In this document: one piece after another, positions 1,428-8,473 of the stretch
How the letters are laid out: every line of letters begins with the position of its first letter
How positions within the stretch are numbered: position 1 is the first letter of the stretch
IMG/VR virus record: IMGVR_UViG_2579778666_000005
DNA: 8,473 nt
Source of the DNA: a virus
Lineage: Duplodnaviria > Heunggongvirae > Uroviricota > Caudoviricetes
Direction: 5' to 3' (one strand)
The notes under the pieces: model-generated
Told to the model about the DNA's origin: nothing
The model's input: only the letters and a program-made list of their open reading frames with translations
Databases searched by the model: none
Program-made: the position numbers and the translations under genes

Positions 1428-1461
1428 CCTTCAAAGAGGCGGTTTATGTTATCCCATTGGA

Positions 1462-3105
1462 TTAAGATCTACATTCAACTAAAAGGTACACTAATGGACG
1501 TTCTGGCGTCCCATTCTTCTTTGCAACAAAAGCAGATATTTTGTGTTTTGCTATTTTTTGCTTGAGTTTTTTACATAACACTTTGTTTATATAACCAAGT
1601 TTCCCGCTCTCATGAACAACAGCTATAGCATGTGGATCAACCGGGTTATCCTCTTCAGGAACAAGCTTGACCAAATCACCGACCATTACTTTCGACAAAT
1701 CAAGCCCTTCCTGATAACGAGTTCCTGCCACTTCAAAAAGAAGCTCACCTTCACTATTAAGAATTTCTGGATCTGGCACCAAACAAAAACCATCGCCAGG
1801 TGATTTTGCTCCTGTATATCCTAACAGCGCAAAATCAGAGCCTTCAAATGGATGGGGGAGCAAATGTTGAGCCAGATACTCAGCAAAGTCTTTTCTTTTC
1901 CGTGGTGGTAAACGCCGAACAAACGGGTCAAGCACGTTGTTCGTATGTTCTTCACTTTTCAGACTAAATGCGGGATGTCCTGCAAACCCTTTCTCTTGGG
2001 CTTTAGCATAATCTTCTGACTGAAAATGGTATGTGAAGACGTAGTTATCCCCTTGCTGACGATCAATCTGACCAACAACATAACGAGTACCGCCTGTGGG
2101 TGGCTGCCATGTAAGAAGCAACCGAGTAGGCTCCATTATTCTGTTTATAGTACGCATATTTAGAATCAGTGATAACCTTAGGTATCTACGCCTCAATAAA
2201 CGAATCGTCCAATCCGCTCGTTCCCTAGTGAACGGCACATCGGAGCTAATTTCGCAAAGTGAATCTATCTTGTCGACCAGTTCCTGAAAATCAAATTCAA
2301 GTCTCCGGGCCAAGTACGCTTTTGACTGCTCATCAAGAGCCAAATCCTGTATAGAAGAAATATGACCTAATCGTTCATGCGTGTCTGCCCGATTCTTCCG
2401 CAAATGATGACAACCACGCTGTATGTATTCATCTACATTTTGATGGTTCCATCCTCTGATCCTCTCTACATACCTTTCATGCCCCAAACTAGTACCATTA
2501 TCGAAATATGGTGCGAGATATCCCTTCACTTTAGGTGGCGTTATGCCTGGTGCAGATTCAGGTACAAAAACAAAACCCCAATTCTCTTGGTGTCTATCAC
2601 TATTACCGATGAGCGCATCAAAAAGCAGCATATCGTAAAGCCATTGGATCCAGTCTGGAGAGATCAGGCCGCGGATACTAAAAGCCCTACAAATTAAGCG
2701 TAGATCAACAAGGTTATGGTGTCTTCCGGAAGAGTCATCAAAATCCGATATCAACACATGAAAAAAATCAGACGCATGAACAAATAACTGGCTACTTTGA
2801 TCGTAAAACCACTCAAGCAAAGCTCCATATTCGTATTCACCGTTCTCCATCATTCTTCGCGCTGGCAATGCTTTAGGAACAGGAACGCCCATAACATCTC
2901 CAACTATATAAGCAACGGTTTCCATCCAGTACTGATCGGGATAAGCATCTCTTGAGAGTTTAAAAAGATAAGGCCATTCCGGTTTTATCCCCTCAGGAGC
3001 ATCATTCGGTGACCAAAGCATTTTTTTATCCCTCGCTCCTCGAGGAAAAATGCCATGCTCATCATCTTTACGCCAACTAGTTACATCTATTAAATTGATA
3101 TCCAT
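1462..3105 (-). CDS. HipA-like (PI3/4-kinase-fold) protein kinase domain fused to a C-terminal HIRAN domain, 547 aa
   Basis: ATG start at 3103..3105, TAA stop at 1462..1464. Catalytic-loop-like motif LIGNSDRHQENWGF at about residues 164-177 (GNxDxHxxN, HipA_C-like) followed by APYFDNG at about 198-204 (HipA YD-like metal-binding motif). C-terminal NPVDPHAIAVVHESGKLGYINK at about 487-508 resembles the HIRAN signature (NPxDxNAI ... G..GY). Start lies 9 nt downstream of the preceding gene's stop, so probably co-translated. Visibly AT-rich. Confidence 0.8.
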   Translation of the reverse strand: MDINLIDVTSWRKDDEHGIFPRGARDKKMLWSPNDAPEGIKPEWPYLFKLSRDAYPDQYWMETVAYIVGDVMGVPVPKALPARRMMENGEYEYGALLEWFYDQSSQLFVHASDFFHVLISDFDDSSGRHHNLVDLRLICRAFSIRGLISPDWIQWLYDMLLFDALIGNSDRHQENWGFVFVPESAPGITPPKVKGYLAPYFDNGTSLGHERYVERIRGWNHQNVDEYIQRGCHHLRKNRADTHERLGHISSIQDLALDEQSKAYLARRLEFDFQELVDKIDSLCEISSDVPFTRERADWTIRLLRRRYLRLSLILNMRTINRIMEPTRLLLTWQPPTGGTRYVVGQIDRQQGDNYVFTYHFQSEDYAKAQEKGFAGHPAFSLKSEEHTNNVLDPFVRRLPPRKRKDFAEYLAQHLLPHPFEGSDFALLGYTGAKSPGDGFCLVPDPEILNSEGELLFEVAGTRYQEGLDLSKVMVGDLVKLVPEEDNPVDPHAIAVVHESGKLGYINKVLCKKLKQKIAKHKISAFVAKKNGTPERPLVYLLVECRS

Positions 3106-3114
3106 ATCTTACGG

Positions 3115-3666
3115 TTACCCAGCTAATGCACGGAAAGCAGCACTAACATAAGCTACCTGAAACTTTGCATCTCGAAGCGCATGATGCGCATCAGTAACAT
3201 TAATGGAAAAATTTGCCCTTACATCAATATTCTTAAGGCTTTTAGCTAGTTCAACGATGGTACGCACGTCTCGATCATTTCGAAAACGCCATGGGATATT
3301 TTGCGCATGTTTACGGTAAACCGCTGCCAATATAGCGTTATCAAAGCTTGCCCCATTCCCCCAAACTTGTACGTCATCGTTACTACGACTTCGTACAAAT
3401 AGAGAAAATTCTTGTAAGGCTTCATGTAAGTCAACAGCAGACGGGTCATTAAAAACCGCCCTTGCAGAATCGCTTTGTATCATCCACCACTGTAAAGTTT
3501 TTGGGTCTACAAAACTATTTTCCAATGCAGATGATAGGGTTATAACTCTATAAAACTCATCCCCACACTTGCCAGTCAGAGGCTCAAAGAACACAGCGCC
3601 GATTGAAATCAAAGGAGCATCCATTGACACACCTAATGTTTCTATATCGAGCATTAAATTATTCAT
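3115..3666 (-). CDS. DEDDh-family 3'-5' exonuclease (DnaQ/RNase T-like), 183 aa
   Basis: ATG at 3664..3666 preceded by a strong SD (ggaggttaa ATG). All three exo motifs are present: Exo I LDIETLG (D8, E10), Exo II GNGASFDNAIL (D109), Exo III HHALRDA (H161-x4-D166). Stop TAA at 3115..3117. Confidence 0.82.
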   Translation of the reverse strand: MNNLMLDIETLGVSMDAPLISIGAVFFEPLTGKCGDEFYRVITLSSALENSFVDPKTLQWWMIQSDSARAVFNDPSAVDLHEALQEFSLFVRSRSNDDVQVWGNGASFDNAILAAVYRKHAQNIPWRFRNDRDVRTIVELAKSLKNIDVRANFSINVTDAHHALRDAKFQVAYVSAAFRALAG

Positions 3667-3806
3667 TTAACCTCCACCCCAGACATAGCTCAGGGAAACG
3701 TAACCTATTGAAATAACGAATCAAGTATTTGTCACATTCTATACTAAAACATTCGAATTCCAAAACTTCAGCTTTTGCAACCCCTTACAAGTCAATTGAT
3801 CCATAA

Positions 3807-3826
3807 TACTGTATACATACACAGTA
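3807..3826. promoter_or_regulatory. LexA (SOS) box in the intergenic region between gene A and the exonuclease/kinase cassette
   Basis: tactgtatacatacacagta matches the E. coli LexA consensus TACTG(TA)5CAGTA at 18/20, with CTG and CAG separated by 10 nt. It lies about 140 nt upstream of the exonuclease ATG on the coding side. Flanking sigma70 hexamers are ambiguous: TTGACT at 3790..3795 and TAGAAT near 3737..3742 are both plausible pieces but not correctly spaced with each other. Confidence 0.7.
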
Positions 3827-3844
3827 CTACATTTGAAAAACAAA

Positions 3845-6121
3845 TCAAGGGAAATCATTAAAACCCGGCCAATCACAACAAGGCGGATAAACAAATTTTT
3901 TCATGTCATAAATAACTTCTGCCCCACGAGCCAGCGCCTCAAGCTCCCATCTCTGAGGCCTGATACCGTTCTGAGCAAGGTCAACGCGGATACGGGTGAT
4001 TTGCAATCGTTCAGACCGGGTCAGTCTGGCCGATGGTGCAATTTCATGCGGTTTTAACGGGCTTCCGTTTCTTTGCTGACGGTTTGGTCTTCTCAGGCCG
4101 TATTTTAATGCACCTCTGAGCGCCCTCACGACCTCCGGGTCATTCCATTCGATAACACCGTCATCAACCAGATTAAGCACTGCTGCGGCGTGCTCAGAAG
4201 GTTTGGGAGCCGTTAACGAAGTATCACTGCCGGTGAACTTTCCACAGTTATTGACAGGACTCCGAGGCGCGGCGATGCCGCTTTTTAAAGTCAAAGGCTC
4301 AACGACCGGAACTTTCGGCACAATGCGCCAGTCCGTCGTTCTGGTGATATGAATATGACGCGCGCCGAGATGCGGCGCGTAAATGCCGACCACTCTCTCG
4401 ACTTCTTCCTCGTACTCGTTAACGTCATCCGACGGGCTACGGGCGACTCTGACAGTCTGACAATCGCGCGGAACATTTGCCCCACCCTGCGCGCTGATAT
4501 ACAACGCAAAATCACCACTGTCTGCGGCAGCGCGAGCAGCCTCGACGCGTTCGTCAAACTCATCAGCAATACTGACGCCGCGAGGCAATTTGCGTAGTTC
4601 ACGGTAAGCCCCCATTGTCGGCAGTCCAACCGTTTTAAATTGCGGGATGCGCCACGTTGACGCCCATGCGGTAACAGCCGCGGCAGTATCTTTAAGCGGC
4701 TTACCGGTATCGTTATCGAGCTGACCATCCAGTGCATAGCCGTCGATATTTTTTGAAATGTATTTCGCGATATATCCCGCAGCACCGCCCCGGTTAAGGT
4801 GTTTTGCCTGAAAACGGTTTCGCGCGGCTCCTCTTTCGTCGCCATCCTCTTTGAGCGCATAGCGACGCATGATTTCAATAATCTGGTTACGCTGGCGTGG
4901 ATTACAAAAAAGCATCATATGCCAGTGCGGCGTTCCGTCGTGGTGTGGTTCAACAACACGCAAACCGTAGGCCTGTAAATCATTATCCTTGAATGCCGTG
5001 CGCATCAGGCTCCAGATACGGCAGAGATAACGCTGCGCATCCTTTGGATTAAATGCCTCATCATTCCAGCCGTGATTTAGCTGGACGGTTTTACTTTCGC
5101 CTTTTCTGACCTGACGTGTCGGGTGATACTTTGACGGCGCGGTCAGCGTGATAAACATCCCCACATCACCCTCTGCGGCAGCGTAACGCTCAATACCGGC
5201 GATGGTGTTCATCAGCTCCATCCGGCGAATTTCTGGATTAGAAATACTGCCCATCACCTTACTGATAAGGTCGATGCGCTCGCCGGTTTCCCTGTTTTCA
5301 AGGTCACACGATTTAAGAAATTCCAGATTTGCCTGGCGGCGCGCACGCACATCACGAATGGCATGTTTACTGGCATAAGGAGAACGGTCTTTATTGACCT
5401 CCCCGACAGCAATCAGTAACGCCTCATGCCAGCGCATACGCTGGCCTTTAAGCTGATGAGTCCACCATTCATCGTTAAACAGACGGGCAATGGCAGAATA
5501 TGCCTGCCTCGTGGTCATCTGCCCTTTACGGTATTTTTTCCAGTAGAGCGGAGAAATATTGAAAGCACGTGCAGCGCCAGCAACATGACCATAGAGGTGA
5601 GCCTGCGCCTCATCCGTAAACAGCGATTCTTTTTCGCCATGCGCATCCACCCAGGCATCGCAGAGTTCCTCATACATCATGAAAAGCTGCGATGAGATAC
5701 GGGCGGCAAACTTTTTCAGCTCCTTATCATTCATCCCCGGCAGACGCGCATAATGGTCACGCTCTGCCAGAAACAGCAACGACGCGTCGGTGTTCATTTC
5801 ATGGCGCTGATTCACACGCTCAATGCGCGGCCATAAACGACGCTGAAAAGTGGATGTGAGGAAATAAAACCCGTGCACCGGGCTTTTATTGCGCCGGATG
5901 TAGTCATAGCGTGAAGTAAACAGCGAGCGCAAAAAGTAAGGCAGGCGGTTAATCGTGGATAAAACACCTTGCACCTGACGCATCTCGTCACGTGTAAGGG
6001 GTCTTTCGCGCCCGACGGCCTCGCGTGGCGCGTTCCATGCATAAGCACCGGTAAACGTCTTACCGGTGCCTGCGGCAAATGCTGACGGAGGGACAAAACG
6101 CCCGGAGGCTTTAACGGCCAT
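3845..6121 (-). CDS. A: P2-type replication initiation endonuclease gpA (HUH rolling-circle Rep), about 758 aa
   Basis: HUH motif PHWHMMLF (codons for HWH at 4919..4927) and a double-tyrosine motif GYIAKYISK (Tyr codons at 4772..4774 and 4760..4762). N-terminus MAVKASGRFVPPSAF... from the ATG at 6119..6121 matches my recollection of P2 gpA. The track start at 6163 is a TTG that would overlap the upstream gene by more than 50 nt; I prefer the ATG. Confidence 0.88.
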   Translation of the reverse strand: MAVKASGRFVPPSAFAAGTGKTFTGAYAWNAPREAVGRERPLTRDEMRQVQGVLSTINRLPYFLRSLFTSRYDYIRRNKSPVHGFYFLTSTFQRRLWPRIERVNQRHEMNTDASLLFLAERDHYARLPGMNDKELKKFAARISSQLFMMYEELCDAWVDAHGEKESLFTDEAQAHLYGHVAGAARAFNISPLYWKKYRKGQMTTRQAYSAIARLFNDEWWTHQLKGQRMRWHEALLIAVGEVNKDRSPYASKHAIRDVRARRQANLEFLKSCDLENRETGERIDLISKVMGSISNPEIRRMELMNTIAGIERYAAAEGDVGMFITLTAPSKYHPTRQVRKGESKTVQLNHGWNDEAFNPKDAQRYLCRIWSLMRTAFKDNDLQAYGLRVVEPHHDGTPHWHMMLFCNPRQRNQIIEIMRRYALKEDGDERGAARNRFQAKHLNRGGAAGYIAKYISKNIDGYALDGQLDNDTGKPLKDTAAAVTAWASTWRIPQFKTVGLPTMGAYRELRKLPRGVSIADEFDERVEAARAAADSGDFALYISAQGGANVPRDCQTVRVARSPSDDVNEYEEEVERVVGIYAPHLGARHIHITRTTDWRIVPKVPVVEPLTLKSGIAAPRSPVNNCGKFTGSDTSLTAPKPSEHAAAVLNLVDDGVIEWNDPEVVRALRGALKYGLRRPNRQQRNGSPLKPHEIAPSARLTRSERLQITRIRVDLAQNGIRPQRWELEALARGAEVIYDMKKFVYPPCCDWPGFNDFP

Positions 6122-6386
6122 ATGAGCCAAAAGCCTCTGAACAACGCTTGCTGAGTTGCTCAACCTGCGCGTTTAAATCAGCAAAAGACTTTGCGCTTCC
6201 GGTCAGAATATCGTGATGCATCAGGCCGGAAACAAGCTGGCTTAATTTCGGGTAATAACCAACCACCGCCAGCCATTCCTGACCGGCGTTTTTACCGCTT
6301 TCCGCTCTCTTTTTCTCGTGGAGAATAAACTGGAAGCTGTCACTGGTAACGACATAACGTTCGCCAATTTCAATACGAATACTCAT
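6111..6386 (-). CDS. Small conserved early-operon protein, 91 aa; by position the P2 orf83 equivalent
   Basis: ATG start with a GGAG SD 7 nt upstream; ATGA start/stop overlap with the upstream ORF; its 3' end overlaps the gene A start. Function unknown. Confidence 0.7.
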   Translation of the reverse strand: MSIRIEIGERYVVTSDSFQFILHEKKRAESGKNAGQEWLAVVGYYPKLSQLVSGLMHHDILTGSAKSFADLNAQVEQLSKRCSEAFGSYGR

Positions 6387-6607
6387 GCCGTTCTCCGGTA
6401 ATGTTTGTTTTTTGCTTCAAAGACTGACTGACAGGAAACACAACGCGTGGCTGACGGATAAGCCGCACGACGGGCAGCAGGTATTGGCGCGTCACACTCT
6501 TCGCAAACCAGCGCAGAAGCACCGCAATGTTTACCCCTTGCCGCGTTAATCTGGCGCTCCAGTAATTCAGCCTGTTGTTCCTGAATAAAATCTACGTTGT
6601 CCGGCAT
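6383..6607 (-). CDS. TraR/DksA-family C4 zinc-finger protein, 74 aa; by position the P2 orf82 equivalent
   Basis: CxxC-x17-CxxC (CEECDAPIPAARRAAYPSATRCVSC) in a short protein with an acidic N-terminal helix; strong SD (aaggag) 7 nt upstream of the ATG. Confidence 0.75.
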   Translation of the reverse strand: MPDNVDFIQEQQAELLERQINAARGKHCGASALVCEECDAPIPAARRAAYPSATRCVSCQSVFEAKNKHYRRTA

Positions 6608-6609
6608 TA

Positions 6610-6909
6610 TCAGCTCCTTTTATCGTTAAGTTTCCTGGATACATCAGCGCAATAACTGGCGAGTTCTGTCGTTAATTTTGTCAGTTCATCCACTGAGGAA
6701 ATTTGCTTGTGGAATACAGCGCGTTTAACAAGTAAATTGACCACATCAGACAGGAGGTTTAATTCATTCTGATAAATCGCGATAACAGATTCAGTGATGT
6801 CGCGTTTTTCTTTATCAAGACAAAGTTGAATAAGAGACAAATCGCCATTTTCCATAACGGCGATTTTTAAGGCGTTATTCAGTAATACAACTGAATGAGA
6901 ACAGGACAT
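6610..6909 (-). CDS. Hypothetical early-operon protein, 99 aa; by position the P2 orf81 equivalent
   Basis: The track start at 6912 is TTG. The adjacent ATG at 6907..6909 has a GGAGG SD about 9 nt upstream and overlaps the upstream stop (TGATG). Confidence 0.65.
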   Translation of the reverse strand: MSCSHSVVLLNNALKIAVMENGDLSLIQLCLDKEKRDITESVIAIYQNELNLLSDVVNLLVKRAVFHKQISSVDELTKLTTELASYCADVSRKLNDKRS

Positions 6910-7133
6910 CAAAGTACCTCCCCACGAGACAATCCGATATTGTGAAATTTTTCCGACTCCTGACTGAGCAGCTCGACTATCTCCACGCGGGATAACTCCG
7001 CCTTTGTGATGTGGCGAATCATGGCGTCAAGATGAGAAGAAAAGCGCGTCGCAGCGTCAGCCTGTGCTTCGGTTCTGGCCTGTTGCAGCAGTAATGCGTA
7101 TTTACCGCACTGATTTTCAGAAACTGTATGCAT
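6909..7133 (-). CDS. Hypothetical early-operon protein, 74 aa; by position the P2 orf80 equivalent
   Basis: ATG at 7131..7133 with a GGAG SD 8 nt upstream; same strand and operon context. Confidence 0.65.
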
Positions 7134-7196
7134 AATTTTCTCCAGGCAAAAAGAAGCCCCGCACGATTAAGTGCGTTTAAAACTCTGGTTAATTAT

Positions 7197-7697
7197 TTAA
7201 TGCAGATATTGCTCTGGTTTTACCGACGTCAGAATTGTCGGTGCATACTCAAACAGGCTGAATAATTCACGTAATGCACGGAATAAAGCATCACGCCAGT
7301 AACATGACTCTTCATTAATTCGCCAGTATGGCTGGTTGAATTCTTTTTCAGTCAATCCGGCATGCATAAATAAAGTACGACGCTGACTGACTGTTAAAAA
7401 ACTAATATATGCATACTCACTTGCGCCAACCTGACGGCGTTTTGAGAATGCCCCACGCAATTCATCAATTGCACAAACCAGCCGTTCACGTTCGACGTCG
7501 TTCATTTCTTCAAAACGCATCGTTGCATGACGTTGTTTTAACTGCGCATGAAAGCAAACCGTTAGCCGTTCGCGTTCCATCATCTGATTATAATAATCAC
7601 ATGTATCCTGCCAGCGAGGGACGGCCAGATGCTTACCAATTATCCGGCGCATAGCTGCTGGCTGTTTTTCAACGAGATTAAGCGTCATCACTGTCAT
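7197..7697 (-). CDS. B: P2 gpB-like replication protein (helicase-loader role in P2), 166 aa
   Basis: Length 166 aa and N-terminus MTVMTLNLVEKQPAAMRRIIGKHLAVPRWQD... match my recollection of P2 gpB. GGAGGG SD 9 nt upstream; ATGA overlap with the upstream ORF. Confidence 0.8.
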   Translation of the reverse strand: MTVMTLNLVEKQPAAMRRIIGKHLAVPRWQDTCDYYNQMMERERLTVCFHAQLKQRHATMRFEEMNDVERERLVCAIDELRGAFSKRRQVGASEYAYISFLTVSQRRTLFMHAGLTEKEFNQPYWRINEESCYWRDALFRALRELFSLFEYAPTILTSVKPEQYLH

Positions 7698-7864
7698 TTC
7701 CAGACCCTCCGGCTTTTCAGAAAGGTCAGAGCCTTCTTTAACGGACTCTGTTTTTTGGTGCGGATAATGATTCCCTTGCGTCCCTTCCCGTGGGTGATGG
7801 TGAAGTCAATCGCCCTGGGGCTTTCGTTACGCAGTAACTGAGCAATACAACGCGGTTCACTCAT
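7694..7864 (-). CDS. Small basic protein, 56 aa from the ATG at 7864 (65 aa if 7891 is used); by position possibly the P2 orf78 equivalent
   Basis: Lys/Arg-rich C-terminus. The ATG at 7862..7864 overlaps the stop of the truncated upstream ORF (ATGAGTGA), typical of translational coupling. The ATG at 7891 has no SD and an in-frame stop just upstream. Confidence 0.5.
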   Translation of the reverse strand: MSEPRCIAQLLRNESPRAIDFTITHGKGRKGIIIRTKKQSPLKKALTFLKSRRVWK

Positions 7865-8033
7865 AATCACAACCCCATCCACAAAAGCCATGCATCACGC
7901 TGTTCAACTGGTCGGTTATAAAACGCCTCTCGTACAGCGCGATTAAACTCTGGAATGAAAACCCACTTCTCACCGACACGGGCGTTCGGCTTACTTGGAT
8001 CACGAAGCTCAATAACTGGCAATTTATTCTCTT
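7857..8033 (-). pseudogene. 3' fragment (58 codons plus stop) of an early-operon gene truncated by the IS629-like insertion; possibly a cox-like first gene
   Basis: One minus-strand frame is open from the IS junction (8033) to a TGA at 7857..7859, giving KRINCQLLSFVIQVSRTPVSVRSGFSFQSLIALYERRFITDQLNSVMHGFCGWGCDYE*. It has no start codon in the prophage-derived sequence. The sequence does not match my recollection of P2 Cox, so identity is uncertain. Confidence 0.4.
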
Positions 8034-8087
8034 TGAACCGCCCCGGGAATCCTGGAGACTAAACTTCCTGAGAAAGAGGTAAACAGG

Positions 8088-8414
8088 ATGACTAAAAATA
8101 CTCGTTTTTCCCCCGAAGTCCGTCAGAGGGCGATTCGTATGGTTCTGGAAAGTCAGGGCGAATATGACTCACAGTGGGCGGCAATTTGTTCCATTGCCCC
8201 AAAGATTGGCTGTACACCGGAGACTCTGCGTGTCTGGGTACGCCAGCATGAGCGGGATACCGGAGGCGGTGATGGCGGGCTCACCACCGCTGAACGTCAG
8301 CGTCTGAAAGAGCTGGAACGTGAAAATCGTGAACTGCGCCGCAGTAACGATATCCTTCGCCAGGCTTCCGCTTATTTTGCGAAGGCGGAGTTCGACCGCC
8401 TCTGGAAAAAATGA
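8088..8414 (+). CDS. IS3-family transposase OrfA (HTH and leucine-zipper part), 108 aa, IS629-like
   Basis: [85 protein letters not shown]... matches IS629 OrfA as I recall it to within a few residues. ATG with an upstream GAGG/AGG. Confidence 0.9.
8406..8411 (+). other. Putative programmed -1 ribosomal frameshift slippery run (A6) at the orfA/orfB junction
   Basis: gg aaa aaa tga: the A6 run at 8406..8411 sits immediately before the orfA stop with orfB open in the -1 frame. This is the arrangement IS3-family elements use to make the OrfAB fusion transposase. Confidence 0.5.
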
Positions 8415-8473
8415 TGCCACTGCTGGATAAGCTGCGTGAGCAGTACGGGGTCGGACCGCTATGCAGCGAACTG
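8411..8473 (+). CDS. IS3-family transposase OrfB, 5' end only (truncated by the window), in the -1 frame relative to OrfA
   Basis: [21 protein letters not shown] begins at the ATGATG at 8411, overlapping the orfA stop; classic orfA/orfB arrangement. Confidence 0.8.

Follow-up and report, generated by a model that had tools for sequence, protein, structure and literature searches.

Among the described systems, the SOS operon of phage 186 comes closest to the locus analysed here. According to the GenBank record of this phage (U32222), the promoter p95 is located downstream of gene A and consists of the −35 element TTCACA and the −10 element TACTGT separated by an 18-nt spacer, and the annotated LexA site, TACTGTATGTTTATACAGTA, starts at the p95 −10 element. 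Behind the promoter come tum, the partial terminator t95a and finally orf97, for which the record remarks 'expression from plasmid blocks 186 infection'. A LexA-controlled gene is found at the same end of the genome in the P2-like prophage DuoHS of Escherichia coli HS. Genetic proof is available in that case, as both the lexA(Ind−) and ∆tum mutations block the response to DNA damage (PMC12055606). The regulated product of DuoHS is an antirepressor and the output is lytic induction (PMC12055606), whereas the genes behind the box described here encode an exonuclease and a kinase.

The two cargo genes have described counterparts as well. HipL was described as a monocistronic kinase (Gerdes et al. 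2021, PMC8262856). The protein encoded in our locus shares with the HipL and HipI/HipN modules of that study the kinase core, the HipS-like domain and the HIRAN domain; in contrast to the monocistronic arrangement, its gene is paired here with that of a DEDDh exonuclease behind a predicted LexA operator. The DEDD deoxydinucleotidase clusters in mobile elements of Gram-positive bacteria similarly link a small DEDD exonuclease to HipA/HIRAN genes (PMC11706625), although the Rv2179c-like enzyme found here belongs to a different DEDD subfamily and the hosts are different. Neither of the two papers (PMC8262856, PMC11706625) mentions SOS or LexA control. The cassette occupies exactly the gpA–gpQ defence hotspot of P2 (Rousset et al. 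2022, PMC9122126; NAR 2026, PMC13586616), and the main text of both hotspot surveys contains nothing on LexA, SOS, HipA or HIRAN. Nothing specific on LexA or SOS control was found in the literature for the cargo of the P2 hotspot, for HipL or for HIRAN proteins, and no experimental report on toxic kinase activity of HipL or on anti-phage protection by HipL was found.

The E. coli K-12 chromosome carries several LexA-regulated toxin modules, such as tisB, symE, dinJ-yafQ and yafNO. They resemble the present locus in that a growth-arresting toxin-type gene stands directly under LexA repression, which is predicted in our case. They are small, chromosomal type I or type II modules, whereas a kinase of the HipA family, equipped with a DNA-end-binding domain and carried as phage cargo, is the predicted target described here. 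The switch itself is known, as the LexA box is an ordinary one and the proposed promoter is of a type characterised in phage 186. What is new, as far as can be read from the sequence, is the configuration, which combines the lack of an antirepressor and P2-type immunity with an exonuclease–HipL cargo.

The exonuclease–HipL cassette and its prophage setting

The window, i.e. the whole stretch of 8473 nt that was analysed, contains a fragment of a P2-like (Peduovirus) prophage truncated by IS elements. All the relevant genes are on the minus strand, in the order truncated cox, B, several small ORFs, gpA, exonuclease gene and hipL. The part at 1428–8034 is 98.5% identical to Escherichia phage 899 and Yersinia phage GMG73. 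These two were the only named phages found to carry HipL, and no well-studied phage with transcriptome data was among the carriers. Replication gene A (3845–6121, minus strand) encodes the rolling-circle initiator corresponding to P2 gpA (Pfam Phage_GPA, E = 2e-122); its stop codon is TGA at 3847–3845, and an alternative upstream TTG start at 6163 is present in the ORF list. The homologues in phage 899 and in E. coli Ecol_656 are annotated as replication endonuclease. Of 40 listed complete chromosomes of E. coli, about 20 have the match at positions 2222–2562 of a record that begins exactly at the gpA ATG, which looks like a start-gene rotation by an assembler that mistook the prophage replication gene for the chromosomal start gene.

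The prophage is interrupted at both ends. An IS4-family transposase gene (15–1428) abuts the cassette at about 1428, and an IS3-family orfA (8034–8473) cuts cox at about 8034; neither of these junctions is present in 5426 complete E. coli genomes, so that the DNA may stem from another strain or from an IS-rich relative such as Shigella. The insertions removed the immunity region and the early promoter and left a prophage remnant. Since the early promoter region was deleted by the IS3 element, local promoters are the sole plausible drivers of the cassette in the window. In the intact relatives, gpA and the portal gene flank the cassette; this site is the known gpA–Q hotspot of P2-like phages. 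The homology of phages with near-identical gpA to the window ends at 3860–3894. Because these phages diverge there, the box at 3807–3826 and all the sequence downstream of it belong to the variable cargo and are no part of the conserved backbone.

The cassette opens with the gene (3115–3666, minus strand) of an Rv2179c-like DEDDh 3′–5′ exonuclease of 183 aa (Pfam PF16473, E = 7e-57). Its DEDDh residues D7, E9, D109, H161 and D166 are invariant across homologues of 45–89% identity. The second gene, hipL (1462–3105, minus strand), encodes a HipL-type kinase of 547 aa with a HipA-like kinase core, a HipS-like domain and, at the C-terminus, a HIRAN domain. The Pfam matches of this protein are Couple_hipA, HIRAN and HipA_C, the last one at 25.8 bits, i.e. 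below the gathering cut-off of 30.5. The residues D170–N175 of the catalytic loop (DRHQEN) and D202 (FDNG) are invariant. With PADLOC, PDC-M03A and PDC-M03B, the halves of the candidate system PDC-M03, both match the single HipL polypeptide. Sequence searches against solved structures provided remote matches only, to an exodeoxyribonuclease (8kel) and to CtkA, and nothing on regulation. The hipL gene starts 9 nt after the stop codon of the exonuclease gene (3105–3117), and an exonuclease gene precedes hipL at close range in all 22 P2-like loci compared. The split form found in one of them (L012) corresponds to the hipI-hipN arrangement (PMC8262856).

The LexA box and its proposed promoter elements

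The predicted LexA (SOS) operator TACTGTATACATACACAGTA is located at 3807–3826; on the minus strand, which is the coding strand here, its sequence is TACTGTGTATGTATACAGTA. The gpA stop codon precedes it by 18 nt, and the ATG of the exonuclease gene (3666) follows 140 nt downstream of it. The preliminary description of this DNA had reported a near-consensus LexA box with a CTG-N10-CAG core, placed directly downstream of gene A and upstream of the cassette, and both the box and its placement were confirmed. The sequence agrees with the SOS-box consensus TACTGTATATATATACAGTA in 18 of 20 positions, as had been stated. The CTGT-N8-ACAG core is exact; the two mismatches fall within the AT-rich centre (positions 10 and 14), and each of them is a T-to-C change. 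The motif scan which the same description had proposed as a check was carried out with a position weight matrix made from an informally compiled set of 25 E. coli LexA boxes. The box scored 24.5 bits, the training sites themselves spanning 11.4–27.0 bits. In 2000 first-order Markov simulations of the window, a score as high as this did not occur; the simulated maxima had a mean of 7.9 bits and the highest was 19.7 bits.

The other exact CTGT-N8-ACAG match of the window (1812–1827) is part of a weak LexA-like site, TCCTGTATATCCTAACAGCG (1810–1829), inside the HIRAN-coding part of hipL. It was rejected as a real operator because it scored 15 bits, a value reached by 27 of the 2000 simulations, and because its conservation extends no further than the closest relative (L008), in which it is already degraded (13 bits); it is missing from more distant lineages. 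This site is probably fortuitous.

As to the promoter, the preliminary description considered that it could not be assigned confidently. This is true of the generic promoter scan, which did not call any promoter at the box; however, a promoter can be proposed from the architecture of p95. The proposed −35 element TTGATT (3843–3848, minus strand) overlaps the gpA stop codon and is located 16 nt upstream of TACTGT (3821–3826, minus strand), which is the left half-site of the box and has the sequence of the annotated −10 element of 186 p95. By analogy with p95, we infer that the promoter is TTGATT-16-TACTGT and that transcription starts near 3814, inside the operator. On paper this promoter is weak, with four of six matches in the −35 element, three of six in the −10 element and a 16-nt spacer. 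The hexamer TTGAAT is found in L008 at the same spacing upstream of the box as TTGATT in the window. In 12 of 16 loci aligned on the box, its left half-site was preceded at a distance of 16–18 nt by a TTGACA-like hexamer (at least four matches of six), compared with 12% when the same statistic was taken at random positions of the same 16 loci. The candidate −35 hexamers of the individual loci include TTTACA, TTCACA, TTCCCA and TTGCAA. Their mean match was 4.06 compared with 2.42 in the null, and 4.06 was reached in none of 20,000 resamplings, the lineages not being independent. Alternatives picked by eye, such as the combination TTCAAA-18-TACAGT and plus-strand promoters antisense to gpA, were dropped, as their −35 elements are not conserved in L008.

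The sole call of the generic scan was a second sigma-70-like site, TTGGAA-16-TAGAAT (3763–3736, minus strand), with 9 of 12 matches, which lies 45–90 nt downstream of the box. The block around it has almost the same sequence in L008, and the site may act as a promoter of the cassette that does not depend on LexA. Since it could give a basal LexA-independent expression, the statement that the cassette is switched on only by DNA damage may go too far. A Shine–Dalgarno sequence, GGAGG (3671–3675, minus strand), was read 4 nt before the exonuclease ATG. The 5′ UTR from 3815 to 3660 exhibited no significant structure (z = 0.30) and no Rfam match, and scanning the interval between the box and the exonuclease gene for terminators and Rfam families revealed no terminator-like structure and no family. 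Because the gap between the two genes is only 9 nt and neither a terminator nor a significant structure of the 5′ UTR is apparent, the exonuclease and HipL are expected to be encoded by one transcript.

Conservation of the box and kinship with the phage 186 operon

DNA searches with the intergenic region retrieved only copies which are 99.7–100% identical (2 phages and 61 E. coli genomes). Such near-identical copies are uninformative on conservation, and the loci for comparison were therefore retrieved via their proteins. The P2-like loci with exonuclease and HipL genes (or split hipI/hipN) numbered 22: two (L013 and L014) among 61 loci with exonuclease homologues, the viral contig L012 and 19 further viral contigs retrieved with HipL. 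A box of 20–29 bits lies between gpA and the exonuclease gene in 22 of 22, a count that is not fully independent, as the compared lineages are kin. The box is strong in L013 and L014, which have gpA upstream and the exonuclease gene followed by HipL/HIRAN, and likewise in L012 with its split hipI/hipN form, and it occurs in the gpA–exonuclease interval of 19 of the 19 HipL-retrieved contigs (HipL identity 62–100%). There are 14 distinct box sequences among the 22 loci; the CTG...CAG bases are kept and the centre varies. In about 55 loci in which an exonuclease homologue has no link to HipL, nothing above 11 bits was found within 450 nt upstream.

The closest diverged relative, the Serratia locus L008, has a gpA 60% identical and an exonuclease 89% identical to those of the window. 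The half-sites of its box are identical in 12 of 12 positions to those of the window, the centre differs in two bases, and the flanks (20 nt each) are only about 45–55% identical. Behind near-identical gpA the situation is different: 80 loci with gpA at least 92% identical represent 43 types of downstream cargo, and a box of at least 19 bits occurs in three of these types, i.e. the exonuclease–HipL cassette, a SocA/Panacea pair (L114) and a 386-aa protein (L168), and is missing from the remaining types, about 40 of the 43. Since the box is present in all 22 cassette loci and in only three of the 43 cargo types, it is bound to particular cargo and not shared by the hotspot as a whole.

In a group of more distant relatives (L085–L093, L014 and L082–L084), the box is followed within 10–25 nt by a GGAGG-type Shine–Dalgarno sequence and a tum-like ORF. 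The most complete protein (L092, 160 aa) is 58% identical to 186 Tum and has a DinI-like C-terminus. L086–L090 contain a Tum-N-like ORF and a separate DinI-like ORF (Pfam DinI in L087, E = 4e-24); of these two, L085 and L091 have kept the first alone, and L093 has a truncated version of the second. All that is left of tum in L014 and L082–L084 is a Tum-N-like ORF of 60 aa. A tblastn search of the window with 186 Tum and the Tum-N-like and DinI-like ORFs found nothing (best E = 0.6), and the Serratia relative of the window lineage is without tum as well. The parallel with phage 186 drawn in the preliminary description is thus supported and goes back to a common origin of the operons, with tum homologues behind the box in relatives and the same geometry of box and −35 element as in p95. 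Because the box of the relatives directly precedes tum homologues, exonuclease and HipL correspond to the orf97 slot of a 186-type SOS operon (p95-tum-orf97). Judged by this gene order, the cassette belongs to a 186-type SOS operon from which tum has been lost in the window lineage.

The likeness extends to several details. Both operons occupy the slot directly after replication gene A, with which they share the strand, and precede the packaging end. TACTGT is both the left half-site of the operator and the −10 element, annotated as such in 186 and proposed in the window, with the −35 element 16–18 nt upstream; the 186 operator is very similar to the box of the window, and the cargo downstream of tum rides on the operon. 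The differences concern gene content and immunity. The operon of 186 is headed by tum, whereas the window contains no tum gene or fragment; its cargo is orf97 instead of the exonuclease and HipL genes, and there is no t95a-like terminator in the window. Phage 186 has CI/Apl immunity, whereas phage 899 and E. coli Ecol_656, the intact relatives of the window, have the P2-type immunity (C and Cox) in the form of a 97-aa HTH_3 repressor and Cox. Immunity of the P2 type is not SOS-inducible. Derepression at the box should therefore not induce the prophage.

Several further features were observed in the tum-bearing relatives. A stable GC-rich hairpin (L087 3281–3323, −25.4 kcal/mol, z = −4.4; also in L086 and L088–L093) is located between the DinI-like ORF and the exonuclease gene, which is the position of t95a in 186, and is absent from the window lineage. 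Pairs of overlapping LexA boxes which share five bases, e.g. TACTGTATATATAAACAGTGgatatgcatacagtc, were found in L087 (2751–2785), L089 (870–904) and L090 (2747–2781). Such pairs resemble the tandem operators of colicin operons and are a known arrangement of LexA operators. Additional ORFs lie between gpA and the LexA box in some of the loci. One of them (L087 1868–2686, L093 2051–2734), 227–272 aa in length and with a DPPY motif, encodes a protein resembling a DNA methyltransferase, which would be extra cargo upstream of the SOS promoter. Another is a conserved 128-aa ORF with a Cys-rich C-terminus (L014 2504–2890 and L082–L084), for which a Pfam search gave no match.

Control of the cassette and alternative explanations

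These comparisons make it probable that the box is a functional LexA operator which overlaps the −10 element and the start of the p95-type promoter TTGATT-16-TACTGT and gates the exonuclease–HipL cassette. Most likely, this SOS operator makes the cassette damage-inducible, and the earlier reading of the cassette as repressed by LexA and induced by DNA damage is supported. In an undamaged lysogen, a LexA dimer bound at −10/+1 would occlude the promoter. After DNA damage, the self-cleavage of LexA stimulated by activated RecA (RecA*) would free the promoter, and a single mRNA for the exonuclease and HipL would be produced. The locus would thus represent a 186-type SOS operon minus tum, in which a P2-type prophage keeps the operator for gating its cargo and not for prophage induction. 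LexA binding, the promoter with its start site, co-transcription and damage inducibility are all what we infer from sequence features.

The most serious competitor of LexA gating, although rather unlikely, is dual control, in which the cassette would be constitutively expressed from TTGGAA-16-TAGAAT and the LexA-controlled promoter would add an SOS boost. LexA would then modulate the expression and not act as an on/off switch. The site at 3763–3736 is the best sigma-70 match in the region and its block is nearly invariant between the window and L008, but the block is conserved only in this relative, which is 87% identical overall, and a single promoter-like match is at the level of chance (shuffled sequences contain 2.2 on average). 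Consensus-like TATAAT elements also occur 40–70 nt upstream of the exonuclease gene in other lineages; these elements, however, are not homologous to the 3763–3736 site. In phage 186, orf97 is set apart from tum by a partial terminator, and the tum-bearing relatives have a stable hairpin in the equivalent position, which suggests that expression of the cargo is partly uncoupled from p95. With the 3763–3736 site as the principal promoter, repression by LexA from a position about 90 bp upstream would fail. Constitutive expression in the lysogen is also the case for many prophage defence genes.

The box might alternatively be a relic of p95-tum left over after the deletion of tum, which may still bind LexA and has no selected role in the cassette. 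The absence of tum from the window, together with its presence behind the box in all the more distant lineages, and the decay of the prophage with IS elements at about 1428 and 8034 are in line with this view. A neutral leftover should nevertheless decay at the rate of its flanks, and in the two lineages without tum (E. coli and Serratia) the half-sites are still perfect and the −35 motif TTGA-T is preserved despite heavily diverged surroundings; moreover, an operator overlapping the only upstream promoter would regulate the cassette regardless of its history. We therefore regard the relic as very unlikely. That the palindrome serves as an RNA hairpin or terminator of the early (cox-B-A) transcript, or as a DNA site of another protein and not of LexA, is hardly credible, even though it lies 18 nt after the gpA stop codon and the RNA 3835–3800 folds into a 12-bp hairpin (−12 kcal/mol, z = −3.4). 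The hairpin is AU-rich, has no U-tract and was not called by the terminator scan. In the relatives, the central 8 nt are not self-complementary and no compensatory changes occur in the stem; what is conserved is exactly CTGT-N8-ACAG with flanks of the LexA consensus, and some relatives have two overlapping LexA boxes. The hairpin/terminator explanation was rejected on these grounds, namely the missing U-tract, the lack of a scan call and a stem complementarity that is not conserved beyond the LexA consensus.

LexA gating, if true, has consequences for the way such loci are studied. Defence cargo of prophages is usually assumed to be constitutively expressed in lysogens. A candidate toxin-kinase or defence system of the kind described here would not be expressed in ordinary plaque assays as long as the SOS response is not induced, which bears on the screening of such systems and on the presumed activation of HipL/HIRAN proteins. 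The locus would also illustrate how an element of prophage induction (p95-tum) is kept and reused after the antirepressor has been lost. It is possible, though this suggestion is tentative, that exonuclease and HipL form a DNA-damage-gated suicide or defence module, in which LexA silences a DNA-end-sensing toxin kinase until the SOS response sets in. Possible triggers would be an infecting phage, an induced co-resident prophage or genotoxic stress, and the P2-type phages, which are not SOS-inducible themselves, would have kept the ancestral induction operator for this gating.

In a broader form of the suicide or defence proposal, units consisting of an SOS promoter plus cargo would be exchangeable in the P2 hotspot, with the SocA/Panacea toxin–antitoxin-like pair of L114 as a second example, and this combination may occur there repeatedly as a module. 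The gpA of L114 is 95% identical to that of the window, and its cargo (5060–6410) consists of a SocA/Panacea-domain protein and a DUF2975-like membrane protein. The two genes are located behind a p95-like promoter-operator of their own, TTGCAA-18-TACTGTTTTTATATACAGTA, which scored 27 bits. In L168, a 19-bit box is placed ahead of the 386-aa protein.
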